A stretch of DNA of 30,084 nucleotides, from IMG/VR virus record IMGVR_UViG_2908572912_000002; one strand, given 5' to 3'. The notes below the pieces were generated by a model. It did not search any database and was not told the origin of the DNA. It worked only from the letters and a program-made list of their open reading frames with translations. How positions within the stretch are numbered: position 1 is the first letter of the stretch; every line of letters starts with the position of its first letter. Source of the stretch: a virus (Duplodnaviria; Heunggongvirae; Uroviricota; Caudoviricetes). This document shows positions 91-21,508 of the stretch, one piece after another. Both the position numbers and the translations under genes were made by a program.

Positions 91-265
91 TTAGTATAAA
101 AAAGTTGAATGTGAAACGGTAAAAACAATTAATATCAACGGCTTATAATTGATTCAGTCTAAAAAATAGACTGCATAATGCTACAAAACACAACATATCC
201 AGTCACTATGAATCAACCACTTAGATGGTATTAGTGACCTGTAACAGAGCATTAGCGCAAGGTGA
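91..265. other. attR: attR: lambda-type att core (ttagtataaaaaag at 91-104) with chromosomal B' flank (cgtttcgctcaag, 78-90) and phage P arm; left prophage boundary
   Basis: 15-bp core repeated at 28740-28754 (14/15 identical); flank matches E. coli attB B' arm as recalled; P-arm-like AT-rich sequence follows. Confidence 0.8.
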
Positions 266-329
266 TTTTTTTGTCTTCTTGCGCTAATTTTTTGTCAACA
301 CACTGGGTTAGCTGAATTTACAACCACGC

Positions 330-551
330 TCAGTATCTCGATAAGCGCAGAGAAATGATGCAGTGGTGGGCGGATTGGCTTGATGAAAAAGTGGAGTAAT
401 CCGGACCGTACTTCTTTATCCAGGCATAAAGGCTGTGGGTGGTGATATCGAGACGTGTTGCAACGCTGGCAACAGAATAACCGCGATCAATAACCTGTTT
501 GACTGCTTCAGTTTTAAACTCTTCGGGATAACGCTTACCGCTCATGGGCAC
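330..551 (-). pseudogene. IS3-family transposase OrfA, N-terminal HTH fragment (homology ends after ~50 aa)
   Basis: Translation MPMSGKRYPEEFKTEAVKQVIDRGYSVASVATRLDITTHSLYAWIKKYGPD resembles IS3-family OrfA HTH, then non-homologous tail; SD-like aagagagg upstream. Confidence 0.6.
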
Positions 552-611
552 CTCTCTTTAAGCCATCTTAAATGACTCTGAGGTGTCTGTTAAACCCGTG
601 GCGATTCAAAA

Positions 612-1061
612 CTGCGTGTTACGTTCGCCCTGGACTGTTGCGATCGTGAAGCCATAGACTGGGCCGCAAGCACGGGAGGTTACGATAAAGCGACAGTGCA
701 GGATGTCATGTTAGGAGCGATAGAAAAACGCTTTGGCGATAAAGTACCGGAACAGTCCATCCAGTGGCTGACAGATAACGGTTCAGCGTATAGAGCGCAT
801 GAAACACGGCAGTTCGCCAGAGAGTTGAATCTGGAGCCCTGCACAACGGCAATCAGCAGTCCTCAGAGTAATGGAATGGCAGAAAGGTTCGTGAAAACGA
901 TGAAGGAAGACTACATCGCGTTCATGCCGAAACCGAATGTAAGAACGGCATTGCATAATCTTGCAGTGGCGATCGAACATTACAATGAAAACCATCCGCA
1001 CAGTGCGCTGGGTTATCGCTCTCCGCGAGAATATCGACGTCAGCGGGTAACGTTAACTTAA
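612..1061 (+). pseudogene. IS2-like transposase OrfB, C-terminal integrase-core (rve/DDE) fragment lacking its 5' two-thirds
   Basis: Frame open from ~612 with no start: [42 protein letters not shown]...[10 protein letters not shown]...[11 protein letters not shown]...[14 protein letters not shown], resembling the C-terminus of IS2 InsD as recalled. Confidence 0.65.
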
Positions 1062-1102
1062 GATACACCCCCTGTCTGGAAATAAGGGGGCAAGAACAAT
1101 GA

Positions 1103-1855
1103 TCAGATTCCCTGGTGAGTAAGAATTTTACTTTCTGAACTCCTCTGAGAGTATTGACTTGGAGAAACACCAAAATAACGTCTAAATACATAAGTAAAGT
1201 ATGAGACACTGGCATAACCACAGACCTTAGCTACTTTACTAATAGGATAACAACGAGTGCTGAGTAAATATTCAGCCATTTGCATCCTCTCATCAAGTAT
1301 GATCTTACTGAATGATACCCCCTCTTCTTTCAATTTCATCTTTAGTAAACTTTCGCTGAGATATAATCTTGATGATATATCCTTAAGACGCCATGGTGCA
1401 GATAAATCCGTATGAATAATCGTTTTAACTTTAGCCCCTGTGCTTTTCAAACATCCAAACAGAAATACTCCAAATTGTTTTTCAGAAGAAAATGCAGAGA
1501 GACATGTAAAAGCAATAGACTCATCAAAAATTTCTATGTATTCAGCACAGTGATTAGCCCAACTAATTAATCCTTTAATTAAACTGAAGTCAGCAAAGTT
1601 TATTTTTAAATAAGATGGATATTCCCTACAATCAGAAATATCCCTTAAGTTATTAGCTTTCAAATAGCGACTAATAAACTCAGCGCCAAAATCCGCCACT
1701 ATCACTCTTTCAGGATATGTCAGGAAAAAATCTCTAGAGCTAGAGTCGACAAGTACAGATGAACCTCTCTCCAGAAACACACTCTCTTTTCCGAAATAAA
1801 CATCAAAGGACTCCAAAATCAATATAACTGAACATGTAGTTGCCATATCATCCAC
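1103..1855 (-). CDS. AraC-family transcriptional regulator, AppY-like (paralog of 10804-11544)
   Basis: 250-aa ORF; C-terminal AraC HTH (ISSRLYLSESLLKMKLKEEGVSFSKIIL...VAKVCGYASVSYFTYVFRRYFGVSPSQY); low-GC coding sequence. Confidence 0.8.
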   Translation of the reverse strand: MDDMATTCSVILILESFDVYFGKESVFLERGSSVLVDSSSRDFFLTYPERVIVADFGAEFISRYLKANNLRDISDCREYPSYLKINFADFSLIKGLISWANHCAEYIEIFDESIAFTCLSAFSSEKQFGVFLFGCLKSTGAKVKTIIHTDLSAPWRLKDISSRLYLSESLLKMKLKEEGVSFSKIILDERMQMAEYLLSTRCYPISKVAKVCGYASVSYFTYVFRRYFGVSPSQYSQRSSESKILTHQGI

Positions 1856-2067
1856 CCAATTTAACTGAAACCTGGATGAAGTATATGCATATAAAGTTCA
1901 CTTTGCCAAACTTCAGTATAAAAAACCACATAAAAAATAGGGTGTGATAAAAAATACCGTAACAATAAAGCAAAGGATTATAAAATCCGTTACAGTTACA
2001 AATGATACTCAAGAAACAATTCCTTAGGAAAAACTTATTTACAGCCAATAAGGGTAATGACTCGAAC

Positions 2068-2571
2068 TTATTGATAGTGTTTTATGTTCAGATAATGCCC
2101 GATGACTTTGTCATGCAGCTCCACCGATTTTGAGAACGACAGCGACTTCCGTCCCAGCCGTGCCAGGTGCTGCCTCAGATTCAGGTTATGCTGCTCAATT
2201 CGCTGCGTATATCGCTTGCTGATTACGTGCAGCTTTCCCTTCAGGCGGGATTCATACAGCGGCCAGCCATCCGTCATCCATATCACCACGTCAAAGGGTG
2301 ACAGCAGGCTCATAAGATGCCCCAGCGTCGCCATAGTGCGTTCACCGAATACGTGCGCAACAACCGTCTTCCGGAGCCTGTCATACGCGTAAAACAGCCA
2401 GCGCTGGCGCGATTTAGCCCCGACATAGCCCCACTGTTCGTCCATTTCCGCGCAGACGATGACGTCACTGCCCGGCTGTATGCGCGAGGTTACCGACTGC
2501 GGCCTGAGTTTTTTAAGTGACGTAAAATCGTGTTGAGGCCAACGCCCATAATGCGGGCAGTTGCCCGGCAT
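2068..2571 (-). CDS. insB: IS1 InsB (transposase frame, normally expressed as InsAB' by -1 frameshift)
   Basis: 167-aa ORF overlapping insA 3' end in -1 frame; ...[31 protein letters not shown]... Confidence 0.9.
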
Positions 2572-2765
2572 CCAACGCCATTCATGGCCATATCAATGAT
2601 TTTCTGGTGCGTACCGGGTTGAGAAGCGGTGTAAGTGAACTGCAGTTGCCATGTTTTACGGCAGTGAGAGCAGAGATAGCGCTGATGTCCGGCGGTGCTT
2701 TTGCCGTTACGCACCACCCCGTCAGTAGCTGAACAGGAGGGACAGCTGATAGAAACAGAAGCCAC
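2490..2765 (-). CDS. insA: IS1 InsA (transposition inhibitor / N-terminal part of InsAB')
   Basis: 91-aa translation [43 protein letters not shown]... matches IS1 InsA as recalled. Confidence 0.95.
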
Positions 2766-3453
2766 TGGAGCACCTCAAAAACACCATCATACACTAAATC
2801 AGTAAGTTGGCAGCATCACCAGCCTTCTTGAGGCTACCACCTGTTTTCAGGTGTCATTCAGACGTGATTTGCCCCAGATTGGGAAAGCACGCTTTTTTCT
2901 CAGCTATCGTCCTCTTATTTTGCCGTTACATTTCTTTTTGCACTCTAATGATTAATTTACAATAATAATATCGGTAATTATTGAGTAATAATAAATTGAT
3001 TATTGCAAATGTAATTTAATTCCATCTTCGCGTTATATTCCAATCTTTAATCTCCGCATGGAACAAGTTGCATGCGTGACTATATTAAGACAACTTATAA
3101 CCACCAAAACATTTGCTTTGCAAGCAAAAACAGTGACCATTGACTCTAAGAAAATTCCGATCTATTGTTAGGGTCATCAAAGTTACTTAACAGTATTCCG
3201 AAATGAAAATACAAAGCAAGCTAATTGTCTTATTAAACATTATTATTGCATTTATATTATTTGAGCTTTTAGCTCAAAAATTTGGTTTGAGTACATTATT
3301 TTAAAGCAAGATAAACAATATCGGGCACTCTAGTTTTTATAATTAACAATTAAACGTCCATGAAATGTTATTTACTTTTCTTCGCTATTGTCATATCTTA
3401 ATATAGTGGCTTACGCCACTCTACTTTCATCACATTTTGTACGTTTATGTACT

Positions 3454-3486
3454 CGCCATGAAGCTCTTTCATGGCGATTTTTTATT
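3454..3486 (+). terminator. Rho-independent terminator (9-bp stem cgccatgaa/ttcatggcg, 5-nt loop, then attttttatt)
   Basis: Perfect inverted repeat 3454-3476 followed by T-tract; lies in an ORF-poor AT-rich region. Confidence 0.6.
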
Positions 3487-3569
3487 CTTAATCCAAGAAC
3501 ATACTCCCTACCTATAGCAAAATCACTTTTTTAACAAAAGAATAACGTATTTAGGTAATCATTACGAAT

Positions 3570-3749
3570 TTACCCTATAGGTGCTACTGGCCATTCAATA
3601 TCCGGTGCAGTTGTTGTATTAACACGGTTCAGCAACACCCGATACTTCTTCCAGGCTTCCAGCAACGAAGTTTCTTCCTCCGTTGCGATTTCCAGCTCAA
3701 CAACAGTCTGAACGTACCAGGAACAGCCTCCTTCAGGGCTTGAAGGATA
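3570..3749 (-). pseudogene. tfa: tail fiber assembly protein (Tfa) 3' remnant, in frame directly after the stf stop codon
   Basis: Minus-strand translation after the stf TGA: ...[42 protein letters not shown], the conserved C-terminal motif of Tfa proteins (TfaR-like); no start codon. Confidence 0.55.
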
Positions 3750-6700
3750 TCAATGTTCGCTTCCTGTTAACTGCCCGACAAGTGCAACCAGTTCGCTTAC
3801 CTGATTTTCCAGAGTGCTGATCCGGGTGCCTGCTGTTGCCAGATTTTTACGTAGCGTTATGTTTTCCTCTTCCAGCGCGGTAACGCGACCATCTGTTTCA
3901 CGGGCGACCTGAACAAGTAACCCCGTCACGGCGGCGTAGTCAACATTCAGATAACGTGTTTCTTCACGTAATTCATTGCCGTCAACCGTTGGTCCCTGCA
4001 ACTCTTCACCGTAATGAGTAAACGATCCCACAGCTTCTGGTATCGCCTCCATTACTTCCTGTGCAATAACGCCAGCATAAGGCATCCCGTTTTCCCTGAG
4101 CGTGTAGGTGTATCCGTTCATTTTACGGATTGCTTTCGTCGCGTCGCTGATAACGAGAATATCGTCTTTAAGGTCGCGGTCTGATGACTGATTCAGCGTT
4201 GTGCAATTAATAGCGCCATTTACATCAAACAACTGGCCTGCTGACGTTTTTTGCGCATAAAACAGATACGCAGCAGACGTTCCAACCTCAAAAACGTTTT
4301 GTCGATCACTTGATCCCCATACTTTTGCGGCAAATGATAGTTCTGTATTACCTAAGTTCTGTAAAACAAAACGATTTCCAGTCCCTGTTTGTTTTGTAAG
4401 AGTTAAATCAACAGTTGAGTTAACCTCATCCTTGTTGATAGTGAGCGCCTGCGCTTTAGCCCCGTTAACAGCACCTGTTTTGAGTTGAACCGCGCCGTCA
4501 TTACCATTTAACAGTATCTCAGCTCCGCTAAAGAAATTTTTTAGCGACAGCATCTTACTTACGCCGACTGATGAACCCAACGCCCACGCGAGAGAATTAC
4601 CGGTGCTATCAAACCCACGTACAAAGCAATCCATTTTGCTATAGTCTGACGTGCTTCCAAGGACATCAATTCGCCCTCCGCCAGATTTTACCGGGTTAGA
4701 TGTGGTTAATGACCTGACAGCAAGATCGGTAGATGAATTGAGATCGTCTACTGTTAGTAATTTCTTCCATTCCTGCGTCGTTCCATTTTCAATTGTTCTT
4801 CCCCAAAAACCGGAATTGCGGCCTCCGAACTGCACAGCATAATTTTTACTAAATTGAACATGAATGCCGCCAAGAACCATAGAACCTGCCGGGCCGTTTG
4901 TACTGCCTGCAATTGGTATAAATTTATTAATGTTATCAGTATGCTGCGTGTTCCAGTCTCGTCCTGTTTTTGTAAGCAGTCCTAATGTCGTGTCGAGCGC
5001 TTCGGTTAAAGTAAGGTTTTTAAATTTAACTGCGCTACTTTCGCCAAGACTTAAGTTGTTTCGCGCATCTTCTACTGTTGTCGCACCTGTACCTCCTTGC
5101 CCAACAGCTAATGGCAACCAGCCAGTGCCATTATGACAACCCCACAAACCAGATTTGGAAACCTGTAAGCGTGGTGCGCCTGAAGAATACGTAGAATATA
5201 CGTAAGTTGTTTCTTTTCCCTCTTCAACCCTTTCTGTTGATACATCTCTCTTCCATTCAGACCAGGTACCGCTTCCTCCTTCATATATTCGTCTATAAGT
5301 AATTCCCGGATTATTATAAGGGTAGTACACCTGAACGCAGGAAGAAGCAGTGTTGGCTCTCGTTTGGAGCACTATTAAAGCGCCCGCCAGACCGATTGGG
5401 TAATTTAATTCTTCTGTTGCGTAAGCGCTCGTTGGTTGTTGATAGAAACCAGAATATTCACCGGTAAGGGTGTTTAGGTCAGTATTAGCAAGGCCAGCTT
5501 TTTGCTCATACATTACCCGCAAGTTCGCACGTGCTTGCTCGATAGTTCTTCCACCAGTACCGCCCTGGGCTAAACCTAACGGAGACCATTGTCCAGAAGA
5601 AGAATCATAAACCCCCCAACTCCCGTTAGTATGGATTTCAAAGAAACGATCACCAGTTGGACCATACATACGAGTTGTTGATTCATTTTGACCAAAGCGG
5701 CTTAATTCATCTCTGCGGGTATGACGTATCCATTGCGGGCCAGAACTTTGGCTGTAAATGTACGAATACAATGATTTTGTATCTGAACCAACAAATAGAC
5801 CGGAATATCTTTTTGTTGACACTTCTGATCTAACTATATAACCAGAAATAAGATTATCACCGGCACTAGACGCTACTGATGGATAACCTTTCGCTGAGAT
5901 GTAAATCCTGACAAATCCAATATAACCTGATGGCTCAACAGAGATATCAGTGCAGGTCATGGCAACTTCACCAAGACCGATATTATCGCCAACAATTACT
6001 TGCGCCTGGTTGCGATAATTAAGTGCGTCCGCCGCAGATTTCGCCGCGTTTGTTTCACTGGATTTAGCATTAGTTTCGCTGGCTTTAGCGTTGGTTTCGC
6101 TGCTCTTTGCTGCTGCCTCGCTATTTTTCGCGTTGGTTTCTGATTTTTTGGCTGCTGTCGCGGAGTTTGCTGATGCAGTTTGTGAGTCTGCTGCCGCCTG
6201 TGCGCTGTTATCTGCATTCGTCTCAGACGTTTTTGCGGCCTTCGCGGAATTTCCTGCCGCCGTTGCCGAGGAAGCTGCACTACTGGCACTTGATGATGCG
6301 TTCGTTTCTGATGATTTCGCTGCCTCTTTTGAGGCCGACGCATCCCGGGCTGAGGTGGCAGCTTCTGACGCTTTCGTGGTCGCGGTGGATGCAGAAGTGG
6401 CTGCTGATTGTTGTGACGCTGCCGCATTCGTTTCTGACGTTTTCGCCGCACCGGCACTGGTAGCCGCCGCGCTTTTTGAGGACTCTGCAGCGGCAGCACT
6501 TTTTGAGGCTTCAGTGGCCTTTGTTGATGCCGTTCCTGCGCTGGAAGACGCTGACTGAGCCGACGAAGCGGCCTGTCCGGCTGACGTGCTGGCTGCACGT
6601 GCTGAATCTGCAGCATCAGTCGCATGGGTTGCCGCCTCACGGGCTGATGTGCTGGCATCGCTGGCTGATTTCTTCGCGGCTGCCGTGTTCTGTGCCACCG

Positions 6701-7061
6701 CGGACGCGTTACGCGCCACCTCTTCCACCATCAGTTCAAAACGGCGCAGAGCCTCCGGACGGGCATCATCCTCCGTCATGGCACCGAGAAAATCATTCAG
6801 CGTACCGGGTCGGGAATCTTCATACACGGTGATGGTCCCGGCATGTGACGGCGGGAATCCTTCCACCAACAGAATAACGCTGTACTGACCGTACTCAACG
6901 TCCATGCTGTAACGCCCGGCTTCATCCGGATTTTCTGAGGCCAGCGTGTTCACCACCACCGTGGTGCTGTTACGTTTTGCTTTCAGCTGGATTGTGCAGT
7001 TCTGTACCGGTTTTCCTGTGCCGTCTTTCAGTACACCTGAAATCTTTACTGCCATATTCAC
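3750..7061 (-). CDS. stf: side tail fiber protein (Stf), chimeric: lambda-like N-terminal anchor, Ala/Ser/Thr-rich repetitive stalk, divergent distal domain with possible C-terminal intramolecular chaperone-like segment
   Basis: 1103-aa ORF; N-terminus MAVKISGVLKDGTGKPVQNCTIQLKA... as in lambda Stf; long SETNA-type repeats; C-terminal ...NGYTYTLRENG...ALEEENITLRKNL... Confidence 0.85.
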   Translation of the reverse strand: MNMAVKISGVLKDGTGKPVQNCTIQLKAKRNSTTVVVNTLASENPDEAGRYSMDVEYGQYSVILLVEGFPPSHAGTITVYEDSRPGTLNDFLGAMTEDDARPEALRRFELMVEEVARNASAVAQNTAAAKKSASDASTSAREAATHATDAADSARAASTSAGQAASSAQSASSSAGTASTKATEASKSAAAAESSKSAAATSAGAAKTSETNAAASQQSAATSASTATTKASEAATSARDASASKEAAKSSETNASSSASSAASSATAAGNSAKAAKTSETNADNSAQAAADSQTASANSATAAKKSETNAKNSEAAAKSSETNAKASETNAKSSETNAAKSAADALNYRNQAQVIVGDNIGLGEVAMTCTDISVEPSGYIGFVRIYISAKGYPSVASSAGDNLISGYIVRSEVSTKRYSGLFVGSDTKSLYSYIYSQSSGPQWIRHTRRDELSRFGQNESTTRMYGPTGDRFFEIHTNGSWGVYDSSSGQWSPLGLAQGGTGGRTIEQARANLRVMYEQKAGLANTDLNTLTGEYSGFYQQPTSAYATEELNYPIGLAGALIVLQTRANTASSCVQVYYPYNNPGITYRRIYEGGSGTWSEWKRDVSTERVEEGKETTYVYSTYSSGAPRLQVSKSGLWGCHNGTGWLPLAVGQGGTGATTVEDARNNLSLGESSAVKFKNLTLTEALDTTLGLLTKTGRDWNTQHTDNINKFIPIAGSTNGPAGSMVLGGIHVQFSKNYAVQFGGRNSGFWGRTIENGTTQEWKKLLTVDDLNSSTDLAVRSLTTSNPVKSGGGRIDVLGSTSDYSKMDCFVRGFDSTGNSLAWALGSSVGVSKMLSLKNFFSGAEILLNGNDGAVQLKTGAVNGAKAQALTINKDEVNSTVDLTLTKQTGTGNRFVLQNLGNTELSFAAKVWGSSDRQNVFEVGTSAAYLFYAQKTSAGQLFDVNGAINCTTLNQSSDRDLKDDILVISDATKAIRKMNGYTYTLRENGMPYAGVIAQEVMEAIPEAVGSFTHYGEELQGPTVDGNELREETRYLNVDYAAVTGLLVQVARETDGRVTALEEENITLRKNLATAGTRISTLENQVSELVALVGQLTGSEH
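6000..6700. repeat. Degenerate tandem repeats encoding the Ala/Ser/Thr-rich (KSSETNA-like) stalk of Stf
   Basis: Reiterated gcgttggtttc/gctg motifs; many spurious overlapping ORFs in all frames in the six-frame track. Confidence 0.7.
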
Positions 7062-7119
7062 CCCACAAAAAAGCCCGCCTGAACCGGCGGGCTGTCATAA
7101 CACTGTGTTACCTGGCTAA

Positions 7120-7659
7120 TCAGAATTTATAACCGACACCCACGATGAAACTGTTGGTACGCCAGTCACCGCTGCCGGAGCCTTCATAAGCGACGTCAAC
7201 GGCCACGGATTCGGTCGGGTTAAACTGCACGCCAGCTCCCCACGCCAGAGACGTGTTGCTGTGGCGACCGTCATCACTTCCGGTCAGCACATCGTGCGTT
7301 TTCCCCTTGTTGTCAGTTACGCGGATATAATCCCCGGAGAAAGTCGAAACACGGCTGTAAGCCATACCCGCCATCGCATACGCGCTGAACCATTCATTCA
7401 CGCGCACAGACGGCCCCGCCATCACGCTGAACCAGCGATTACGCACGGAATCCTCATGCCAGCGGGTATCGCTGTAATGCGTTTTTTGCTCATCTTCAGC
7501 GTTGGCATAACTGAATGACGTAATCAGCCCCAGCGTGTCCGTAAACTCATAACGGTATTTCACGTTAATCCCGTTCAGATTATCGCTGCCGGAAGCGTTC
7601 GTACGGGCATGAAGATACCCTGCGCTCAGCGTGGCCTGCTGCTCAGACGCCGCAGTTCT
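7120..7659 (-). pseudogene. lom: lom-like outer membrane protein (Ail/Lom/PagC family), 5'-truncated (no start codon or intact signal peptide)
   Basis: Frame open upstream of the listed GTG (7563) to 7659: ...ASEQQATLSAGYLHARTNASGSDNLNGINVKYRYEFTDTLG...WRTNSFIVGVGYKF; C-terminal beta-barrel motifs as in lambda Lom. Confidence 0.75.
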
Positions 7660-7859
7660 TCAACCTCCCGGCGCAGCTTTTCGTTCTCAATTTCAGCATC
7701 CCTTTCGGCATACCATTTTATGACGGCGGCAGAGTCATAAAGCACCTCATTACCCTTGCCACCGCCTCGCAGAACGGGCATTCCCTGTTCCTGCCAGTTC
7801 TGAATGGTACGGATACTCGCACCGAAAATGTCAGCCAGCTGCTTTTTGTTGACTTCCAT
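7626..7859 (-). pseudogene. nu1: terminase small subunit Nu1, truncated after ~70 aa (DNA-binding domain only)
   Basis: MEVNKKQLADIFGASIRTIQNWQEQGMPVLRGGGKGNEVLYDSAAVIKWYAERDAEIENEKLRREVEELR matches lambda Nu1 N-terminus, then RLSSRPR* from out-of-frame lom sequence. Confidence 0.9.
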
Positions 7860-7860
7860 T

Positions 7861-8075
7861 GCTCATTCCACGGACAAAAACAGAGAAAGGAAACGACAGA
7901 GGCCAAAAAGCTCGTTTTCAGCACCTGTCGTTTCCTTTCTTTTCAGGGGGTATTTTAAATAAAAACATTAAGTTACGACGAAGAAGAACGGAAATGCCTT
8001 AAACCGGAAAATTTTCATAAATAGCGAAAACCCGCGAGGTCGCCGCCCCGTAACCTGTCGGATCGCCGGAAAGGA
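7861..8075 (-). other. cos: cos site (cosB with Nu1-binding region, cosN cohesive-end sequence aggtcgccgccc at 8037-8048, cosQ side)
   Basis: Reverse complement of the lambda left end GGGCGGCGACCTCGCGGGTTTTCGCTATTTATGAAAATTTTCCGG... present, contiguous with lambda right-end-like ...cgacaggttacg. Confidence 0.85.
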
Positions 8076-8247
8076 CCCGCAAAATGATAATAATTATCAT
8101 CTGCATGTCACAACGTGCATCTACGCCATCAAACCACGTCAAATAATCAATTATGACGCAGGTATCATATTAATTGATCTGCATCAACTTAACGTAAAAA
8201 CAACTTCAGACAATACAAATCAGCGACACTAAATACGGGACAACCTC

Positions 8248-8481
8248 ATGTCAACGAAGAACAGAACCCGCAGAACAACAATCCGCAACATCCGCTTTCC
8301 TAACCAAATGATTGAACAAATTAACATCGCTCTTGATCAAAAAGGGTCCGGGAATTTCTCAGCCTGGGTCATTGAAGCCTGCCGCCGGAGACTGTGCTCA
8401 GAAAAAAGAGTTTCTCCTGAAGCAAACAAAGAAAAGAGTGACATTACTGAATTGCTCAGAAAACAGATCAGACCAGATTGA
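8248..8481 (+). CDS. small hypothetical protein, basic N-terminus, possible DNA-binding (lambda right-end ORF-like)
   Basis: 77-aa ORF MSTKNRTRRTTIRNIRFPNQMIEQINIALDQKGSGNFSAWVIEACRRR...; position between cos and Rz on the strand opposite the late genes. Confidence 0.5.
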   Translation: MSTKNRTRRTTIRNIRFPNQMIEQINIALDQKGSGNFSAWVIEACRRRLCSEKRVSPEANKEKSDITELLRKQIRPD

Positions 8482-8522
8482 AGCAATTTAGATAATCGTG
8501 CAGACTACGCCCCTCATATCAC

Positions 8523-8948
8523 ATGGAAGGTACTACAATGGCTCAGGTTGCCATTTTTAAACAAATATTCGATAAAGTGCGAAATAATTTAAACTATCAC
8601 TGGTTTTATTCTGAACTAAAACGTCACAATGTCTCACATTACATTTACTATTTAGCTACAGAGAATATTCATCTTGTTCTTGAAAACGATAATACGGTTT
8701 TAATAAAAGGACAGGGTAAGGTTGTAAATGTAAGATTTTCAAAAAATAAATGCCTTATAGAAGCCACCTTAAAAGGATTCAAATCAGGAGAGTTATCATT
8801 TTACGAATACAGGAAAAATCTTGCTACAGCAGGGGTTTTCAGATGGATTACAAATATCCACGAAAACAAAAGGTATTACTATACCTTTGATAATTCATTA
8901 CTCTTTACTGAGAACATTCAGAACACTACACAAATATTTCCGCACTAA
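8523..8948 (+). CDS. DUF1398-family protein (YdfO/YbcV-like prophage protein)
   Basis: 141-aa ORF; [42 protein letters not shown]...[24 protein letters not shown] resembles E. coli YdfO/YbcV as recalled; true start may be the internal Met (MAQVAIF). Confidence 0.7.
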
Positions 8949-9439
8949 ATCATAACGTCCGGTTTCTTCCGTGCCAGAACCGGACTCGCTGGCATGATGA
9001 AATATGTGTACCCGGTAACCCCGGTGTGCATCGTTTTTGATTATTCCCGCACACTCGCGCAGAAGGAGTTCCCCGTCGGGCTACGGTCTCTGTTAATACG
9101 GGAATACGGCGACGATACAGCGCATGATGTGTCAGGCTTGAATACCTTTATCCTTTAAAAGGGATATCAGTTAAGTTATCCCGTGTAGGGTATAAACCAT
9201 TATCAAAGCCACTCTGTAGGAAGTGGCTTTTGTAATGGCAATAAAAAGCCCCGCGAATGCGAGGCTAAATCCTGGTATTTGTAATGACTGGTTCTTATCT
9301 CAACGCAGCCCCTTACCGCGCGCAAAATGCTCAATATCAAGCATCAGCAATGAGATGTTTAATCTGGATTCACTCCAGAAGTGAGCACCACCCTGTCTAC
9401 AGAGCCAGATGTGAAGGATGATGAGTAAAATTATCGCTA

Positions 9440-9907
9440 TCATCGAAGGCATTGCGTCCTGATGTATTCCTGAAGCGTTCTCAGTGCTGTTTGGTCGCGG
9501 ATAATTCCGTCCCGGATACCGAGAACGTTTCGTCCAGCAACTGGAGAGAGTTCGACGGTGGCATCATTGCCCATGCCGGAGGCGCTGGAGGTTTCGGCTG
9601 AGGATGGCACAGGGCATTTTCCTTTGACGAGCACCCGACCACCATTATCAAGCTTGCGCCGAAGAGCATCATTTTCAGCTTTCGCATCAGCTAACTCCTT
9701 CGTGTATTTATCATCGAGTGCATCAGCATCACGCTGGCGCTGCTGCATGTCAGTAATGGTGGCGTTCGCCTTCTCCAGTTCACTGGCCTTGTTATCGCGC
9801 TGTTCTTTGTAGGCGATTGCATTATCACGGTAATGATTAACAGCCCATGACAGGCAGACGATGATGCAGATAACCAGAGCGGAGATAATCGCGGTTACCC
9901 TGCTCAT
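9440..9907 (-). CDS. Rz: i-spanin Rz (RzpD-like), N-terminal TM anchor, coiled-coil periplasmic domain
   Basis: ORF 9440-9919; likely start [26 protein letters not shown]... overlapping endolysin stop; downstream of endolysin. Confidence 0.8.
9481..9687 (-). CDS. Rz1: o-spanin Rz1 (lipoprotein, Pro-rich) embedded in the +1 frame of Rz
   Basis: 68-aa ORF within Rz on same strand; lipobox MVVGCSS; proline-rich [16 protein letters not shown]. Confidence 0.75.
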
Positions 9908-10401
9908 TGTTGCCCCCACAAACAGACCTCACGCTCAATCTCACGACGAGTCATCAGGCCTTTCCATTGCTTACCGCCAGCGTATGCCCAGCGACGTAGC
10001 TGGTCACATGCGCCCTTGATATCGCCCTGGTTTATTTTGCGAAGAAGAGTAGATGTTCTGAAATTGCCTGCGCCCACGTTATAGACGAACGAGTAAAGAG
10101 CGCCGCGCGTTGTTTCCGGTATATCGACTTTGATGTACGGGTTAATTTGTCTGGCTACCGTGGCAAGGTCTTTATTCAGGAGGGCTTTGCATTCTGCTTC
10201 GGTATACGTTTTACCGGGAATGATGTCTTTTCCTGTATGCCCGTGACATACAGTCCATACGCCAACGATATCTTTGTATGGTATGTAGCTGACACCTTCC
10301 AGACCATCGTTACCACTTGGGCCAGTGATTAACACTGATGCTATAGCAATTGCTCCGCCACCAATAGCAGCAGCAACGGCTTTTCGTAATGATGGAGGCA
10401 T
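9904..10401 (-). CDS. R: SAR endolysin (T4-lysozyme-like glycoside hydrolase family 24; RrrD/R21-like)
   Basis: 165-aa ORF; N-terminal Gly/Ala-rich SAR segment [20 protein letters not shown]; ...[21 protein letters not shown]...[20 protein letters not shown]... resembles E. coli RrrD. Confidence 0.9.
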
Positions 10402-10616
10402 TATTCACCTCTCGCAGCCTTGCGCTTATCTTCTTTAATCTTGAAATAAAGGTTTGTCAGGTACGTCAGCAGGCCAAATACCAAGCTACCCAGCACACCT
10501 ATTGCTGCCCACTGTGAGGGCGTGACTTTATCGAGCAGCTGTAAAAACCAGTAGCCAGCACTGCCTGCGGAGGTGCCGTAGGCAATGCCCGTTGTTAACT
10601 TATCCATGGATTTCAT
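10401..10616 (-). CDS. S: pinholin (S21/EssD-like) with dual-start motif (Met1-Lys-Ser-Met4)
   Basis: 71-aa [74 protein letters not shown]; two TMDs; immediately upstream of endolysin. Confidence 0.9.
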
Positions 10617-10803
10617 AGCCTCACCTCCGCAAATAACGGATGGTGTACACGGTTCGGAACGAAGAGGAAAGGTATAGAAGTTACATTAGCGTAAGGCTTG
10701 AACATCTATTCAAAAAGAAAAACGCCGCGATTATTCTGGCGTAGCTGAAAGCATCATACAATTATCAAATACGAAAATTACAAAATCATTAAAACGCATC
10801 ACG

Positions 10804-11544
10804 TTACATCATGTCTTTTTCTAAAAAAAATCTTGATGAATATTGATGGGGAGGAACACCAAAATACCTTCTGAAAACACTTACAAAATATGACGTGTTT
10901 TCATAACCGCATATCTCAGCAACTTTTCCAACAGAATATAAATTGTAGCTTAATAACCTTTCCGCCATCACCATTCGCTCTTCAAGAATTAACTTACTAA
11001 ATGATAAGCCTTCGTGCTTTAATTTTCTTTTTAACAGACTTTCACTCAGATACAGTCTTGAAGATATATCACAAAGTCTCCATGCTGCAGATATATCCGT
11101 GTGAATAATAGCCTTAACTTTACTTCCTAAACTATTAAGACATCCAAATAAAAAACTTTGCACTATTTTCTCTGAAGATAAGATAGCAAGACATGCAAGT
11201 GATATTTGATTTCTAACAAAATCCACAGTTCTGCCATCACAATTCAAGCATGCAATCAAGTTCTTTAACAATGAAAAATCTTCACATTCCACCATCAAGT
11301 ATGCCGGATAAAACCTTCTTACAGAAAAAGGTGAGAGTGTGTTGCTTTTAAAGAAATCATTAACTGTTTTTTCTTCAACATCTACGATCATTACATGATC
11401 TATATTTGATGAAAAAAAATCTTTTAAATTGTAATCAATGAGAACAGCACTTCCTTTTTTAAACAAAATATCTTCTTTACCAATTCGGACATCAAACGAG
11501 TTCAACACCAAAATGATAGAACATATGTATAGCATATTATCCAC
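10804..11544 (-). CDS. AraC-family transcriptional regulator, AppY-like (paralog of 1103-1855)
   Basis: 246-aa ORF; C-terminal HTH ISSRLYLSESLLKRKLKHEGLSFSKLIL...VGKVAEICGYENTSYFVSVFRRYFGVPPHQY; low-GC; AT-rich upstream region. Confidence 0.8.
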   Translation of the reverse strand: MDNMLYICSIILVLNSFDVRIGKEDILFKKGSAVLIDYNLKDFFSSNIDHVMIVDVEEKTVNDFFKSNTLSPFSVRRFYPAYLMVECEDFSLLKNLIACLNCDGRTVDFVRNQISLACLAILSSEKIVQSFLFGCLNSLGSKVKAIIHTDISAAWRLCDISSRLYLSESLLKRKLKHEGLSFSKLILEERMVMAERLLSYNLYSVGKVAEICGYENTSYFVSVFRRYFGVPPHQYSSRFFLEKDMM

Positions 11545-11886
11545 CTGATATCATTGGGGTTACACCAGGTAAGTATAGGTGGAAAATCAATATTCGCCAG
11601 TTCAACAATAAGGAAAATTTCATTGCATCACAAGTATAAAATTATGTATTTAACTCACAAAGACAAATTATTAAACCAATCTGTTATATTATATATAGCT
11701 GCGTGGAATCATAATATTATATATTTTGACTGGCATGTTTACTAACTTTAAGTTGCATCTCAATTGTTTCTTCAGCGTAAACAGACTTTTTATACAAACT
11801 GACACTCTGGGTATCATAGTGTAGTTTTTACGATTGTAAATATCCTGCATGCAGGAACTCATCCTTTTGGATGATATCGCATACAA

Positions 11887-12846
11887 TTAATTTACCATCA
11901 GTCTTAGAGCCAGTTCGTCCGGATAGGGATCGAAGTAATTCTGTGTAAGCAAGTAATCATTAGGATACTCACCCAGATAATGCTTCAGCAGAGTCAACGG
12001 CGCAAGAAGAGGTAATGTGCCAGAACGATAGTTAAGTATAACCTCGCTCAACTCTTTACGCTGGCGTGTACTTAAGTAGTTACTAAAATACCCCTGTATA
12101 TGCATCAGCACATTCGTGTGATTTTTACGTGATGCAGGTTTTCTGAGAATCGCCATCAGCTTATCACGATACACCTCAAAGTATGATTCAAGGTCCGCCC
12201 ACTCGTGTATTGCAGCCACAAATGGTCCCATATCTTTATAGCCTGCCTGACTATGCGCCAACAACTGAAGCTTATAACGACTATGAAAAGCTAATAACTC
12301 TCTTCTTGATAATTTCTCCTTGTAAAGGTGATTGAGCTCATGCAAAGCAAAAACTCTTTCAACAAAATTCTCACGAAGCACTGGATCATGTAATCGCCCA
12401 TCCTCTTCAACCGGTAGCCAGGAAAACTTTTCCATCAAAGTGCTCGTAAATAGTCCCACTCCATCTTTACGACCTCGATTACCATTTTCATCATAGACAC
12501 GCACGCGCTCCATGCCACAGCTGGGAGATTTAGCACAAACCACAAACCCCGATACATCCTTTAATTTGTCCATATAAGAACGACTAAACTCTGTCATTCT
12601 CTCTGTCACATCCTCATTCTGGTCGTGGCTGAAACACATCCGTATATTTCCTTGCGTCGAGCGCACAAGACGTAGAGCAGGACGCGGAACTGGCAGCCCT
12701 ATAGCCATTTCCGGACATACTGGTCTGAATGTTACCCATTCCACTAATTTGTCCATTAAAAAGTCAGCTCTTTTGTGACCACCATCAAAACGAACAGCAG
12801 AACCGGCCAAACAACCGCTGATTCCAATCACAGGTTTTTTTATCAT
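11887..12846 (-). CDS. two-domain DUF523 (TudS-like, putative 4Fe-4S thiouracil desulfidase fold) plus DUF1722 (YbgA-like) protein
   Basis: 319-aa ORF; N-terminal VIGISGCLAG...VRFDGG...RPVCPEMAIGLPVPRP...CAKSPSCGMERV (Cys pattern of DUF523); C-terminal YbgA-like helical region. Confidence 0.65.
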   Translation of the reverse strand: MIKKPVIGISGCLAGSAVRFDGGHKRADFLMDKLVEWVTFRPVCPEMAIGLPVPRPALRLVRSTQGNIRMCFSHDQNEDVTERMTEFSRSYMDKLKDVSGFVVCAKSPSCGMERVRVYDENGNRGRKDGVGLFTSTLMEKFSWLPVEEDGRLHDPVLRENFVERVFALHELNHLYKEKLSRRELLAFHSRYKLQLLAHSQAGYKDMGPFVAAIHEWADLESYFEVYRDKLMAILRKPASRKNHTNVLMHIQGYFSNYLSTRQRKELSEVILNYRSGTLPLLAPLTLLKHYLGEYPNDYLLTQNYFDPYPDELALRLMVN

Positions 12847-13038
12847 ATTCTCCCCCTTGACTAATTCATTAACACATAAACTGTGTAGTGCACGGAATAA
12901 ATTGCCTTTCTGGCGTCATCACTGACAATTTTTCTGTTATGGACTATTCCTAATATAGTATGAAAGTTCTTTAAGTGATCGGTCGTAATCATCTATCTTT
13001 CATACTTACTCTCAACTATCAAAAGTACAGGATTTATT

Positions 13039-13563
13039 ATGAAGTTATGGCCTGTGTTGACTGGCATTGCACTCTCTTTCACTCTTATAGCATGTAAGGC
13101 CCCGACACCACCTAAAGGTGTGCAGCCGATTACAAATTTTGACGCCAACCGCTACCTCGGAAAATGGTATGAAATAGCTCGCCTCGAGAACCGGTTCGAA
13201 CGTGGTCTGGAACAGGTCAGCGCTACTTATGGAAAACGGAACGACGGAGGGATTCGTGTACTTAACCGTGGATACGATCCAACGAAAAATAAATGGAGCG
13301 AGAGCGAAGGTAAAGCATACTTTACTGGAGATACTAAAACTGCAGCATTGAAGGTTTCGTTTTTTGGCCCCTTCTATGGTGGCTATAATGTAATCAAACT
13401 GGATGATGAGTATAAGTATGCTCTTGTCAGTGGTCCGAACAGAGAATACCTATGGATTCTGGCAAGGACCCCAACTATTCCAGATAAAGTAAAAGCAGAC
13501 TATGTGCGAACCGCTCAAAAGTTGGGATTCAATGTCAATGAATTATTATGGGTTAAACAATAA
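13039..13563 (+). CDS. outer-membrane lipocalin lipoprotein (Blc-like)
   Basis: 174-aa ORF; lipobox LIAC; NFDANRYLGKWYEIARLENRFERGLE...GKAYFTG...ALKVSFFGPFYGGYNVI...YLWILARTP closely resembles E. coli Blc. Confidence 0.85.
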   Translation: MKLWPVLTGIALSFTLIACKAPTPPKGVQPITNFDANRYLGKWYEIARLENRFERGLEQVSATYGKRNDGGIRVLNRGYDPTKNKWSESEGKAYFTGDTKTAALKVSFFGPFYGGYNVIKLDDEYKYALVSGPNREYLWILARTPTIPDKVKADYVRTAQKLGFNVNELLWVKQ

Positions 13564-13591
13564 AATCCCTACCCGAAATAATACTTATTAG

Positions 13592-13618
13592 AAAAAAACC
13601 AGCCTTTGGGGAGGCTGG
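13592..13618 (-). terminator. Rho-independent terminator downstream of Q (candidate tR' of the late transcript)
   Basis: Minus-strand hairpin ccagcc-tccccaaa-ggctgg followed by TTTTTTT; ~100 nt after the Q stop. Confidence 0.55.
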
Positions 13619-13718
13619 CTAAATCAGGAAACAAGCTGTTATATGATAATAACTACGTTGCGATTCCAACATTTAAAATGTTAGACTAATGACAATCAGA
13701 CAGCAACTTTTCCTTTAA

Positions 13719-14111
13719 TTATTTCGAACAATCAGCATCCATCTCCAATCGGAGATCCAACACCATCAGCATACCCTCCACTACGCCCTCAGCTTTCTGA
13801 AGCATCCTGCCAACCCAACAATCAGATCGCCCATGCTTACGTGCAAGCGCCATAAAAGTCATGCCGCCGACATAATAGTCCACCAATAAATCATGCAAAT
13901 CGCTGTTGTTCTTTTTCAGACGGGCCATGCACCCGCAAATGATCATCGCGTCATCGTCACAACATTGTGGGCGAGATTTTACTTTTGAAGGAATTAATCC
14001 CTTAAAACCGGCGGCAATGGACGACCAGGTCACATCTTCATGATTATTAGCCGCCCACGCTCCCCAACGCTCAAGAACCATCTGAATATCACGCATCAAC
14101 TTACTCCACAA
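13719..14111 (-). CDS. Q: late-gene antiterminator Q (phage 82/21/DLP12 QuuD type)
   Basis: ORF 130 aa; from internal Met: [62 protein letters not shown]... resembles QuuD; sits between rusA and lysis genes. Confidence 0.85.
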
Positions 14112-14318
14112 AACTCAGACCAGAACGCCAATTACAAGCAAAAATCAACAAAACAGTATTAGTTGATTGTTATCTCTGACTTCATACTCCTGCTCCTGTC
14201 AGTGTTTTGGCGTAATTCTTCAGTATTCGGTAATCGGTCAAAACAGAACCGGGGAAACGATATAAGCGCAGACGCCCCCAGCGGTGGCGAAGAAGTTCTG
14301 CCATATTAAACTCAAACA

Positions 14319-14681
14319 TCATTCATTCCCCATTTCGGTGATGGTCAGTTCCAGCCTCCCACCTTTGGTAACAGGCATCTTCACAACGCGGTAATCAACG
14401 ACCTGAGCATCATCCAGCCAGAAACCTGCTTTAGTGAGTGCGTCAAAAGCGGCTTTTTGCAGATTATCCAGGTCACGGCGACGGCGATCCGGCATGTGGC
14501 ACTCAATGCGGATTTTCACAGGCATAGCCAGGCCGATATCTAGCATTGCGTTTTTAATGATTCGGGCGACGTTATCGCGGTATGCCTGCCCCTCTGCGCT
14601 GATGTGCGTGCGTCCGCGATTATGGCGGTAATAGCGATTATTGCTCGGAGGCCAGGGTAATGTGATGCTGTAGGTATTCAC
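14319..14681 (-). CDS. rusA: Holliday-junction resolvase RusA
   Basis: 120-aa [97 protein letters not shown]... matches RusA as recalled. Confidence 0.95.
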
Positions 14682-14968
14682 GCCTTAATAACCCCCTCTT
14701 TCAGCCAGATAACCTGTGTTCTCGCCATACCTTCCAGCGCGCATTCTTTTGCATATGCAGCATCGACAAAATGTGTGCGGCGGTCGATTTCGTCGTGGCA
14801 GGCAGAACATGCAATGGTGGCAATCAGGTCTGGCGGTTTGATACCGGTACCGCACAATCCAGCCAGCCGGATATGTGCCAGTACAGACGTCTCAGAATTG
14901 CCATTACATACGCCAGGGATTCTTACCTGGCATTCCCGACCACGCGCTGCTTTTCTCAAATCAGCCAT
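14678..14968 (-). CDS. YbcO-like DUF1364 protein (putative nuclease, Cys-rich)
   Basis: From internal Met: [69 protein letters not shown]...; overlaps rusA start. Confidence 0.8.
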
Positions 14969-15131
14969 GATTCCTCCTTGCTGCCAGTCGCAACCATTTT
15001 TTATCAACCAGGCTAGCGGTATATCCGAGCAGTGTTGGTATTTCGGATGGCTTCAGCTCAGGCTTACGCTTACGACGATTTGATACTCTGTAGATGTGTC
15101 CGTTCATGACACGAATAAGCGGTGTAGCCAT
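14961..15131 (-). CDS. ninE: NinE-like small basic protein (56 aa; below the ORF-track cutoff)
   Basis: Hand translation of minus strand: [56 protein letters not shown]; start overlaps ninB stop (TAATG), stop overlaps ybcO start. Confidence 0.6.
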   Translation of the reverse strand: MATPLIRVMNGHIYRVSNRRKRKPELKPSEIPTLLGYTASLVDKKWLRLAARRNHG

Positions 15132-15586
15132 TACGCCTCCTGCTTGTCGCGGAGCAGCTGGAACTCGCAGCTCTGCGGAATAGTCAGGTGGCAGCCAATA
15201 TTCATCGCCCAGGCTTCAACCTTACACAGGAAGACATACATCTCTCCGGTATCAAGATTGGAGGTATGACGTAATGACTGAATGGTGGTGATTTCACCGG
15301 TTACGACATCAACCAGTTCTTTGGTTTCATAACCGAGATAAGTGTGTTTGAGAGCATCTTTTACCCAAGCTGGAGTGGCGAACGTTTTACCCCTGCTGAT
15401 GAGGTATTCACTGATTTCGCTGTACCACATGTGGCTGAGTGCATTCTGGGAAAGACTGCGTCTCTCGCGCCACGGTTTAAGCACCATGCGAAAGCATTTG
15501 CCGTCCTCCAGATAAGGCTGGATCTGCCGACCGATAGCGGTGAAGTTACCGCGATGCAATTTGATACCATCTTGTGGGAGGTTCAC
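15131..15586 (-). CDS. ninB: NinB/Orf-family recombination mediator (YbcN-like)
   Basis: 151-aa ORF with ...[20 protein letters not shown]... resembling NinB family; first gene of a ninB-ninE-ybcO-rusA-Q block. Confidence 0.75.
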
Positions 15587-15792
15587 GCTTCACCTCCGCA
15601 GAGATCAAACGCTGGATGCAAAATATCGCAGGTGCATTTCTGCATCTGTGAATGGAGAAGAGAGGTTGGATTGTATGTGCGCATAAACGTCCCCGTTTAG
15701 CGCAGAAGTCACCGAAGTTGTTCAGGCTCCGATTACTTAATTATGGCAAGTTGATTATCGCAAATCAAAGGTTTTAATTGTGCTTTATTCTT

Positions 15793-15993
15793 TCAAGCGT
15801 TTCCTTCATACCAAAGCCTATAAAGTTTTTCTTCTTCGTTTGGGTTAATAGGCTCACCATGTTTTAATTTTTCAGTGTACAAAATTGTTGAACAAATCGC
15901 GGAAGTTAATCCAGTGATCGCCATCTGCCGCAGATCGGATTTTTGTGTCCCCCTCAACAGACGATCTCCCATCCATGTAATAATTGTATCCAT
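15793..15993 (-). CDS. hypothetical 66-aa protein
   Basis: ORF with in-frame upstream stop and SD-like aagaaggg; no recognisable family. Confidence 0.35.
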   Translation of the reverse strand: MDTIITWMGDRLLRGTQKSDLRQMAITGLTSAICSTILYTEKLKHGEPINPNEEEKLYRLWYEGNA

Positions 15994-16580
15994 GCTTCAG
16001 CCCTTCTTAGTAAATAGTGTGTAGGGCGACTGAAGGACCGAGTTTATGCTTTTTCGCATTGCTTTCAGTTAGTAGACCGGTATAGCACCGGAAACAATCC
16101 TACGGCAAATTGGTTGTCTGACCTCTCGGTTTTTCGTGCATTAACCGATACCCACTACAGTCTCGGCGAAAGCTGCACACCCCCAAGGTGTACTGGTAGC
16201 ACTCGGCACAGCCTAGCGCGCCACTTTCTTCTCACTATCCAGTCTAATTTTATCCCCTAGTCAGACACTCAGATGTAGTGCTCAGCAGCGGCATGCGGGG
16301 GAATACAAAAACTCGGACAAAATTGGGCCCTCCTTTTTGAATCACTCGCGGGGATGTAGTTATTAATACATGGGAAAAGATCTGTTTTCAAATCCAACAT
16401 TATATGGTTTCAATACCACGGGGTGGCTATGTGTTTCTCATTATTATTTACAATCTACTGTAATCGCTCCGAACGCAAATGCGTCAATACTCGAATCAAC
16501 TGATCATCCTGCCACGACTGAAATCTCAAATAGGCCGTTTCTCAAGTAAGAGATTTTGAATGCATTATTGGCTACTGAAA

Positions 16581-16604
16581 TAAAAAACCCAGCGCAAACT
16601 GGGT
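16581..16604 (-). terminator. Rho-independent terminator for the 164-aa secreted-protein gene
   Basis: Minus-strand hairpin acccag-tttgcg-ctgggt followed by TTTTTT, 19 nt after the ORF stop. Confidence 0.6.
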
Positions 16605-16622
16605 TCATATGAAATTTTTTTG

Positions 16623-17117
16623 TCATTTCCAATTGCAAGACTGTGAAATTTTTTCCACAACCTTATCAATCTCAGACAAGTCAAACTCAACTACTTGCAT
16701 AGTTGATCCATAAGGTTCAAACCCAAAAATAGCTTTTTTATGCTTAGCCAAGGTCTTTATAAATTGTATTGGTTGTGGAGCAAATGCAGAATCACCGCCT
16801 TCCCCACCTCCCCAAACACTCTTGACCGGCTTTCCGCCATCTAACCGCACTGTAATTCTTGGGTTGTCCGAACCCATATAATCATTGAATGATAAATAGG
16901 CATCTGTTTTGTTATCACTACAACGCAACACCAGTGAAGTTGCACGATCAGTACCTGCTTTGTTATATGAATCTGGTGATAAATTAAGAGCCACAAAGTC
17001 AGTCTGGTCAGTCATTTTATTTATCTCAGACTTTGTTATCCACGGCCCTAACTTCTCTACACCAGCATTTGCTGTAAACGAGGCACTTATAACAAAGGCT
17101 AAAATAAATTTTCTCAT
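16623..17117 (-). CDS. hypothetical secreted/periplasmic protein with N-terminal signal peptide
   Basis: 164-aa ORF MRKFILAFVISASFTANAGV...; low-GC; lies in a foreign insert between truncated ren and ninB. Confidence 0.6.
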   Translation of the reverse strand: MRKFILAFVISASFTANAGVEKLGPWITKSEINKMTDQTDFVALNLSPDSYNKAGTDRATSLVLRCSDNKTDAYLSFNDYMGSDNPRITVRLDGGKPVKSVWGGGEGGDSAFAPQPIQFIKTLAKHKKAIFGFEPYGSTMQVVEFDLSEIDKVVEKISQSCNWK

Positions 17118-17263
17118 AACCCTATCTCCTTGGATTCAAAGAACTAAATATTATCAAGTCTCTTGCCACTAGAAAACCCACTTTATTTCCAAACTCTGAT
17201 GGCATTCCTGAAAATCCGCTTCATACTCACTTGCCCCGCCCTATCATCCTGAGTAGCTAACCG

Positions 17264-17437
17264 TTAAACAAACGTTCGCCAGACCTTACCATCAATGACC
17301 AGGATTCCTGCCCGCGTCATTTTTGCCGCAGCCTTATTTATGCTGGTTAATGTCACACCTGTTGTCGCAGCAACGTCCGGCGCACAGAAGCTCTTGTGCG
17401 TCTCCAGATAATGAATAATTGCCTCTTTGCCCGTCAT
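17264..17437 (-). pseudogene. ren: ren, truncated after ~53 aa
   Basis: Hand translation MTGKEAIIHYLETHKSFCAPDVAATTGVTLTSINKAAAKMTRAGILVIDGKVWRTFV*; matches lambda Ren N-terminus then ends; start overlaps P stop. Confidence 0.7.
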
Positions 17438-19476: not shown

Positions 19477-20831
<1,355 letters not shown>

Positions 20832-21184: not shown

Positions 21185-21508
21185 ATGGATGCACAAACAC
21201 GCCGCCGCGAACGTCGCGCAGAGAAACAGGCTCAATGGAAAGCAGCAAATCCCCTGTTGGTTGGGGTAAGCGCAAAACCAGTTAACCGCCCTATTCTCTC
21301 GCTGAATCGCAAACCGAAATCACGAGTAGAAAGCGCACTGAATCCGATAGACCTTACGGTGCTGGCTGAATACCACGAACAGATTGAAAGCAACCTGCAA
21401 CGTATTGAGCGCAAGAATCATCGAGTTTGGTATAGCAAGCCAAGTGAGTTCGGTATAACTTGTCAAGGAAGACAAAAGGTTAAAGGGAAATCCATTCCAT
21501 TGGCATGA
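21185..21508 (+). CDS. N: antitermination protein N
   Basis: From internal Met of ORF 21107-21508: MDAQTRRRERRAEKQAQWKAANPLLVGVSAKPVNRPILSLNRKPKSRVESALNPIDLTVLAEYH... Confidence 0.95.
   Translation: MDAQTRRRERRAEKQAQWKAANPLLVGVSAKPVNRPILSLNRKPKSRVESALNPIDLTVLAEYHEQIESNLQRIERKNHRVWYSKPSEFGITCQGRQKVKGKSIPLA

Follow-up and report, generated by a model that had tools for sequence, protein, structure and literature searches.

The window, by which we mean the whole 30,084-bp stretch of DNA analyzed here, very probably carries a passive relic: a complete cos site of lambda specificity that survives in a mosaic lambdoid prophage where it borders an internal deletion, as judged from comparison of its sequence with lambda and related phages. 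The prophage is situated at att-lambda, between ybhB and ybhC, and combines the int/att, red, O, and P regions of lambda with the immunity of phage 434 and lysis genes of the 21/DLP12 type. Both attL and attR are present, genes A through J are missing, and the deletion junction could be mapped, all as expected of a defective (cryptic) lambdoid prophage. We conclude that the prophage is a recent single-deletion derivative that is unable to form virions.

A preliminary description of this DNA had read the element as open to mobilization by a helper phage. The anatomy on which that reading was built (a complete cos, missing genes, and intact modules) stands, but mobilization of the element as a unit is unlikely. 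The general idea of helper mobilization is already known (PMC2669165; PMC4669245): in O157 Sakai, co-resident phages complement defective lambdoid prophages and bring about their transfer (PMC2669165), and helper packaging of a prophage cos is a standard assay (PMC4669245). The present case has little importance beyond annotation, serving as a clean illustration of the size gap in cos-to-cos packaging and as a reminder that work on packaging or transduction in this host can be confounded by the prophage cos.

Anatomy of the cos site and the deletion

The cosN 12-mer AGGTCGCCGCCC occurs as a single copy in the window, at 8037–8048 on the plus strand, with 0.05 matches expected by chance. Reverse-complemented, this 12-mer reads as the lambda left cohesive end, GGGCGGCGACCT, so that the lambda orientation corresponds to the minus strand of the window. 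Lambda 401–1 aligns with window 7649–8048 at 98.5% identity, and lambda 48502–48141 aligns with window 8049–8410 at 94%; two such alignments flanking the cos nick indicate homology and not chance. The cos-region alignment included lambda NC_001416, the re-sequenced lambda PV340536, phages Kati and PhiR49_1, and three E. coli prophages, and subsites were numbered such that lambda n equals window 8049 − n up to lambda bp 137 and 8050 − n beyond. The claim that cos is complete was borne out by this alignment with lambda, in which all lambda cosB subsites were found: a full lambda-type cos occupies window 7884–8078 on the minus strand, in the order cosQ, cosN, I2, R3, I1, R2, and R1 (Table 1). Every component of a lambda-type complex cosB is thereby represented, namely the cohesive end within cosN, cosQ, I2, and an R3-I1-R2-R1 array with an inverted R2.

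Table 1. Positions of the cos subsites, the deletion junction, and other prophage features in the window.
Feature	Position	Strand	Remarks
attR core TTAGTATAAAAAAGT	91–105	+	differs from the lambda core at one position, which lies outside the 7-bp overlap; adjoins the ybhB/bio flank
P arm	106–303		beside the attR core; 86% identical to lambda
IS1 insertion, prophage left arm	2050–2820		comparison with relatives
Side-tail-fiber (stf-like) ORF, 1103 aa	3750–7061	−	intact; followed by tfa remnant, 3576–3713
lom remnant	7120–7648	−	without start codon and signal peptide; homology at junction
Truncated Nu1 ORF, 77 aa	7626–7859	−	residues 1–70 as in lambda Nu1
Deletion junction, Nu1 codon 70 :: lom nt ~70	7649–7651		3-bp microhomology GGC
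R1 TerS-binding site	7884–7899	−	exact lambda 16-mer CTGTCGTTTCCTTTCT
R2 TerS-binding site	7925–7940	+	inverted relative to R3 and R1; exact lambda 16-mer CTGTCGTTTCCTTTCT
R3-R2 interval holding IHF site I1	7941–7983	−	two differences from lambda, at bp 73 and 102
R3 TerS-binding site, lambda bp 50–65	7984–7999	−	G54A (window 7995) is its only substitution
I2 bent spacer, lambda bp 18–50	7999–8031	−	identical to lambda, no indel
cosN nicking site, ~22 bp	8032–8053	−	12-nt cohesive end GGGCGGCGACCT at 8048–8037
cosQ GGGTCCT, packaging-termination subsite	8072–8078	−	identical to lambda
Lysis cassette	9440–10616	−	S 10401–10616, R 9904–10401, Rz 9440–9907; phage 21/DLP12 type
O and P	17434–19031	−	O 18132–19031, P 17434–18135; ori iterons ~18599–18683
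Phage 434 immunity region	19477–20430		cro 19477–19692 (−), cI 19798–20430 (+)
xis and int	27400–28666	+	xis 27400–27618, int 27596–28666; full length (tblastn)
attL core	28740–28754	+	exact lambda 15-mer; ybhC from 28801

The cosQ motif falls at lambda −30 to −24, coordinates that go back to Feiss laboratory work on this subsite. The preliminary description had set the right boundary of the cos region at 8075, which encloses cosN but stops 3 bp short of the end of cosQ at 8078. This subsite is a highly conserved 7-bp element (PMC4669245). Across lambda −16 to +53, a segment that takes in cosN and the whole of I2, the alignment revealed no difference in the window; the role of I2 and the spacing requirement between cosN and R3 have been described (PMC4856287), as have the extent of R3 and the positions at which TerS contacts it (PMC9026076). 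The sole change within any defined cos subsite is G54A in R3. Further differences from lambda, at −36, −32, −17, and bp 73, 102, 134, and 188, fall outside the named sites or within the R3-R2 interval that holds I1, and those at bp 73 and 102 also occur in the deposited phages PhiR49_1 and PhiR42_1. Among the sites in which the preliminary description had proposed to look for mutations, cosN, R1, and R2 are unchanged, while R3 carries G54A, a substitution shared with PhiR42_1.

An apparent 1-bp deletion at bp 138, in the R2-R1 interval, was rejected as a feature of the window because it reflects an extra G138 in the reference NC_001416. This nucleotide is absent from the re-sequenced lambda PV340536 and from every lambda-like relative examined, and its presence in NC_001416 moves the numbering of R1 and Nu1 by one.

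On the far side of cosB, homology to Nu1 ends after lambda nt 400 and is joined directly to lom, so that the deletion is equivalent to lambda ~401–19,030 and comprises A through J together with the C-terminal part of Nu1. The GGC at the joint is common to both parental sequences, which points to illegitimate recombination; an event of this kind at the GGC microhomology would have fused Nu1 codon 70 to lom and removed A through J. The loss of terminase and capsid genes noted in the preliminary description was confirmed with a tblastn search of every lambda protein against the window, in which Nu1 matched over residues 1–73 only and A, W, B, C, D, E, FI, FII, Z, U, V, G, T, H, M, L, K, I, and J gave no match. 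No head, tail-shaft, or terminase large-subunit gene is left in the prophage. The truncated Nu1 ORF encodes residues 1–70 followed by 7 junction-encoded residues (LSSRPR, stop). Since the retained residues 1–70 are identical to those of lambda, packaging specificity is of the lambda type. This fragment keeps the complete winged-HTH DNA-binding and dimerization domain and, if expressed, could compete at cosB.

The Nu1::lom junction was not found in 5,426 complete E. coli genomes, the GTDB representative genomes, IMG/VR, or the JGI metagenomes, and the exact 77-aa junction ORF was not found in the gene catalogue. Its absence from the searched collections gives no sign that the deleted element has spread, although this is weak evidence if the source genome lies outside those collections. 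The deletion appears to be private to this sequence.

Modules retained by the prophage

Measured from att core to att core, the prophage spans 28,649 bp, or 59.1% of lambda, which agrees with the ~28.7 kb estimated beforehand. The same description had considered int/xis, O/P/ori, and the lysis cassette to be intact, and this view is upheld by tblastn, by the match at ori, and by gene lengths in a close relative. Identity to lambda is 99% for Int (all 356 aa), 99% for Xis (72 aa), 99% for O (299 aa), and 98% for P (233 aa), while ori is as in lambda at 199 of 201 positions and has all four iterons. The products of ea8.5, ea22, exo, bet, gam, kil, cIII, and ea10 are full length by tblastn, N and cII match lambda at 91% and 99% in the same search, and red, N, cII, and Q are also intact. 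The repressor and Cro are of the phage 434 type, as indicated by a PDB match and by their sequences. Q, S, R, and Rz are of the 21/DLP12 type, with lengths equal to those in the prophage of strain WP2-W18-CRE-03 (L001), an apparently full-length relative that is 99.7% identical over window 7649–14767.

At attR, the core reads ACTTTTTTATACTAA where lambda has GCTTTTTTATACTAA, a G-to-A change that lies in a core-type Int site and outside the overlap. The adjoining P arm is 99% identical to those of phages mEp332 and PhiR70_1; damage to attR through a diverged P arm was rejected on the strength of this match, which marks the arm as a natural variant.

The arm to the left of lom also contains an AraC-family gene and IS remnants. 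Here IS1 stands in place of ~550 bp that in relatives separate the AraC-family gene from the tfa remnant, which suggests an IS1-associated deletion. Between Q and S lies a moron block (window 10804–13563) that encodes a lipocalin (13039–13563, plus strand), a YbgA/2-thiouracil-desulfurase-like protein (11887–12846, minus strand), and an AraC-type regulator (10804–11544, minus strand); the regulator is intact here and frameshifted in L001. Two ORFs in the imm434-N region, one just past cI (20355–20831, 158 aa) and the other just past N (21505–22386, 293 aa), occupy the place of lambda rexAB/sieB-type exclusion genes. Neither has a Pfam match, and they could be exclusion or defense genes. In the nin region, a 164-aa ORF (16623–17117, minus strand) gave a borderline Pfam match to the T6SS protein VasI, at 26.7 bits against a cutoff of 26.5.

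Packaging length and the fate of the element with a helper

Lambda heads accept ~38–52 kb of DNA (PMC9764419), limits that derive from vector practice and the older lambda literature and not from this element. The preliminary description had held a monomer to be probably below the lambda minimum, and at 28.65 kb (59% of lambda, against ~38 kb) it is. The accompanying suggestion that multimers might allow packaging fails, as a dimer of 57,298 bp, or 118% of lambda, exceeds the upper limit of ~52 kb. Because the monomer falls short of ~38 kb and the dimer overshoots ~52 kb, multimers cannot rescue packaging; neither the cos-to-cos distance nor any integer multiple of it lies within the accepted range. 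The textbook case of a length that cannot be packaged is that of arms-only lambda vectors, at ~29 kb. Small cos replicons are packaged only as multimers that fit, such as three copies of 15 kb or two of 20–25 kb, and lambda vector arms of ~29 kb are too short to package alone (PMC9764419). Terminal cos cleavage varies with the amount of DNA packaged (PMC7617512), and rare underfilled particles may form.

A suitable helper would need lambda packaging specificity together with an immunity other than that of 434; phage 21-type terminase discriminates more than 1000-fold against a lambda-type cos (PMC4669245). The terminase of a lambda-type helper could bind and nick the cos described here. A hetero-immune superinfecting helper, however, would leave the imm434 prophage repressed, just as happens in the Feiss laboratory's assays of passive prophages (PMC4669245), so that only one chromosomal cos would be on offer, and efficient movement as a unit would be barred by a concatemer cos spacing of 28.65 or 57.3 kb against the ~38–52 kb that heads accept.

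Recombination with an incoming lambdoid phage is the likeliest route to mobility, and recombinational rescue would be the realistic fate of the genes of this passive relic. Rescue could be Int-mediated at att, could follow from tandem integration, or could come about by homologous exchange through the cos-Nu1 and early regions. A hybrid that joins the helper left arm from cos to att (27,723 bp) to the right arm of the element from att to cos (20,706 bp) would measure 48,429 bp, 99.9% of the lambda length, and would contain all structural genes, which predicts a viable imm434 hybrid. Through such a 48.4-kb hybrid, the early region (imm434, red, O/P, morons) would be rescuable by any incoming phage of lambda specificity.

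Alternatively, the lone chromosomal cos could act as an in-situ packaging start and support a lateral-transduction-like transfer of host DNA, along a route from cos through the 7.9-kb left arm to ybhB, bio, and uvrB, a possibility that we regard as unlikely. The orientation of cos does aim packaging at the ybhB/bio flank, and excision-defective lambda prophages package prophage and adjacent host DNA (as cited in PMC8008629), but the virions that result are immature (Sternberg and Weisberg 1975, as cited in PMC8008629). Moreover, the terminal cut by a cos-type terminase depends on a second cos, failing which tails cannot attach (PMC6687093), and the window contains only one cosN. Likewise, packaging of repressed passive prophages takes place only where two of them stand in tandem, from one cos site to the other (PMC4669245). 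Packaging that started at 8048 would thus be expected to run through the left arm into ybhB/bio without reaching a terminating cos and to yield abortive particles. A resident helper, or a second cos 38–52 kb downstream, may be present in the host genome beyond the window.

Mobilization of the element as a unit would require that excised and replicated concatemers be cut at cos by helper terminase and moved in helper capsids, a scheme to which we assign a low probability. It draws on a complete cos of lambda specificity, on intact excision and replication functions, and on a precedent in which co-resident prophages complemented lambdoid prophages with head or packaging defects and so enabled their packaging and transfer (PMC2669165). 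Against this, 28.65 kb (59%) and 57.3 kb (118%) both lie outside 38–52 kb, the prophage has no capsid-size-redirection or Rpp-like gene, it stays repressed under a hetero-immune helper, and its junction was seen in no other searched collection. The size gap, the single cosN, the lack of satellite genes, and the unspread junction likewise leave the proposed packaging in the manner of a cosmid or satellite unsupported.

Comparison with systems that do move by means of a cos reveals where the element departs from them. In passive-prophage and cosmid packaging, a cis-acting cos is similarly served by terminase and proheads supplied in trans (PMC4669245; PMC9764419), but those systems need two cos sites 38–52 kb apart, whereas this element offers 28.65 or 57.3 kb. 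The cos-type PICIs (EcCICFT073-like) are likewise chromosomal, carry cosQ and cosN without capsid genes, and depend on a lambda-like helper; they differ in that they lack helper-type R sites and possess Rpp, which redirects TerS, along with dedicated regulation (PMC9026076). The present element, at 28.6 kb, instead lacks Rpp and combines a genuine lambda cosB with the complete early region of lambda. Beside its cos we found a truncated authentic Nu1 with R1, R2, and R3, and not an Rpp next to a cos that lacks a helper-type cosB. The PICI gene set of an AlpA-like regulator and a primase-replicase, in a small genome devoid of a phage early region, is likewise not that of this prophage, and no satellite-type domain was detected among 10 non-lambda ORFs scanned against Pfam. 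Identity as a PICI or other satellite was rejected on this gene content.

The R3 substitution, the Nu1 fragment, and related prophages

The cos of this relic is most likely functional for a terminase of lambda specificity because all of its defined subsites are those of PhiR42_1 (PV340562) and because A54 is common in company with intact terminase genes. The window and PhiR42_1 are 100% identical from window 8230 to 7906, a stretch that reaches 182 bp beyond the cos nick towards cosQ and 143 bp beyond it towards Nu1. PhiR42_1 is 48.7 kb in length, and its record annotates Nu1, A, and W coding sequences of lambda length as well as the start of B; we infer that this phage is viable because it was deposited as complete and with its host named. 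The R3 A54 allele, searched as a 29-mer, is present in 76 IMG/VR contigs, 49 of which have an intact 181-aa Nu1 that carries the lambda DNA-binding domain and 20 of which have an intact Nu1 plus a 641-aa A. The G54 allele is found in at least 120 IMG/VR contigs. On the evidence of these sequences, G54A is a common natural polymorphism.

It is therefore very improbable that G54A, by striking the most critical Nu1-binding site, has killed cos and left a relic devoid of packaging potential. G54 is conserved across R1, R2, and R3 of lambda, and R3 is the most sensitive of the R sites, in which a lone transition at bp 58 gives IHF-dependence (PMC9026076; PMC4669245). Yet bp 54, although inside R3, lies outside the TerS contact segment at bp 55–63 and away from the known defective changes at bp 56, 58, and 59 (PMC9026076; PMC4669245), and even the bp 58 mutant is viable on IHF+ hosts (PMC4669245). 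The identical cos of PhiR42_1, with full-length Nu1 and A annotated, and the 20 contigs in which A54 accompanies intact Nu1 and A likewise argue against a dead site, and G54A was rejected as an inactivating mutation. Given the conservation of position 54 among R1, R2, and R3, the substitution may still cause a mild, IHF-dependent weakening of cos.

We give almost no credence to the notion that the Nu1(1–70) fragment, translated from the late transcript, poisons or competes with helper TerS at cosB and so interferes with packaging: the ORF does keep its start codon, its upstream region, and an entire winged-HTH domain identical to lambda, and PICI Rpp proteins block packaging by heterodimerizing with TerS (PMC9026076), but the DNA-binding domain, as a separate fragment, has weak affinity for DNA, much the same for specific as for non-specific sequence (PMC9026076), the truncation is a random microhomology junction private to this sequence, and there is no evidence of selection. 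It is just as hard to credit that, upon co-induction, the intact cos and Nu1 1–70 together would exert a primitive Rpp-like interference or decoy effect through occupancy of cosB or TerS heterodimers. Interference by the Nu1 fragment, if true, would mark a possible intermediate in the evolution of a satellite from a defective prophage.

As a complete cos left behind by an internal deletion, the site is closest to the complex-cosB cos of lambda, 434, and their relatives, with which it shares the 12-nt cohesive end, cosQ, I2, and the order R3-I1-R2-R1; its R1 and R2 are exact 16-mers, and the adjacent Nu1 DNA-binding domain is identical. It differs from lambda in having A54 in R3, spacer polymorphisms at bp 73, 102, 134, and 188, and a deletion of the downstream terminase genes. 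In E. coli K-12, the cryptic prophages DLP12 (with nohD/cos) and Qin (with nohA/cos) also bear cos. Like these prophages and the O157 Sakai pool, the present element has lost morphogenesis genes and kept cos along with other modules. In contrast to what is usual for old cryptic prophages, it retains an intact early region, int/xis, both att sites, and ori, and its losses trace to a single clean deletion. Cryptic lambdoid prophages can be complemented by, and recombine with, other lambdoid phages, as in the O157 Sakai pool (PMC2669165), for which reason the Feiss laboratory avoids hosts that carry a prophage cosN (PMC4669245). That defective prophages contain cosN is recognized as a nuisance (PMC4669245).

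A different deletion is present in a related defective prophage at att-lambda in NZ_CP035860 (L002) and NZ_AP027971 (L003), where the N-terminal part of terminase A is fused to the C-terminal part of J, and Nu1 (nohD) and cos are intact. The derivative with this A-J fusion occurs in at least 12 further complete genomes, including APEC O78, and the strains that carry it came from chicken, human, dog, and monkey.
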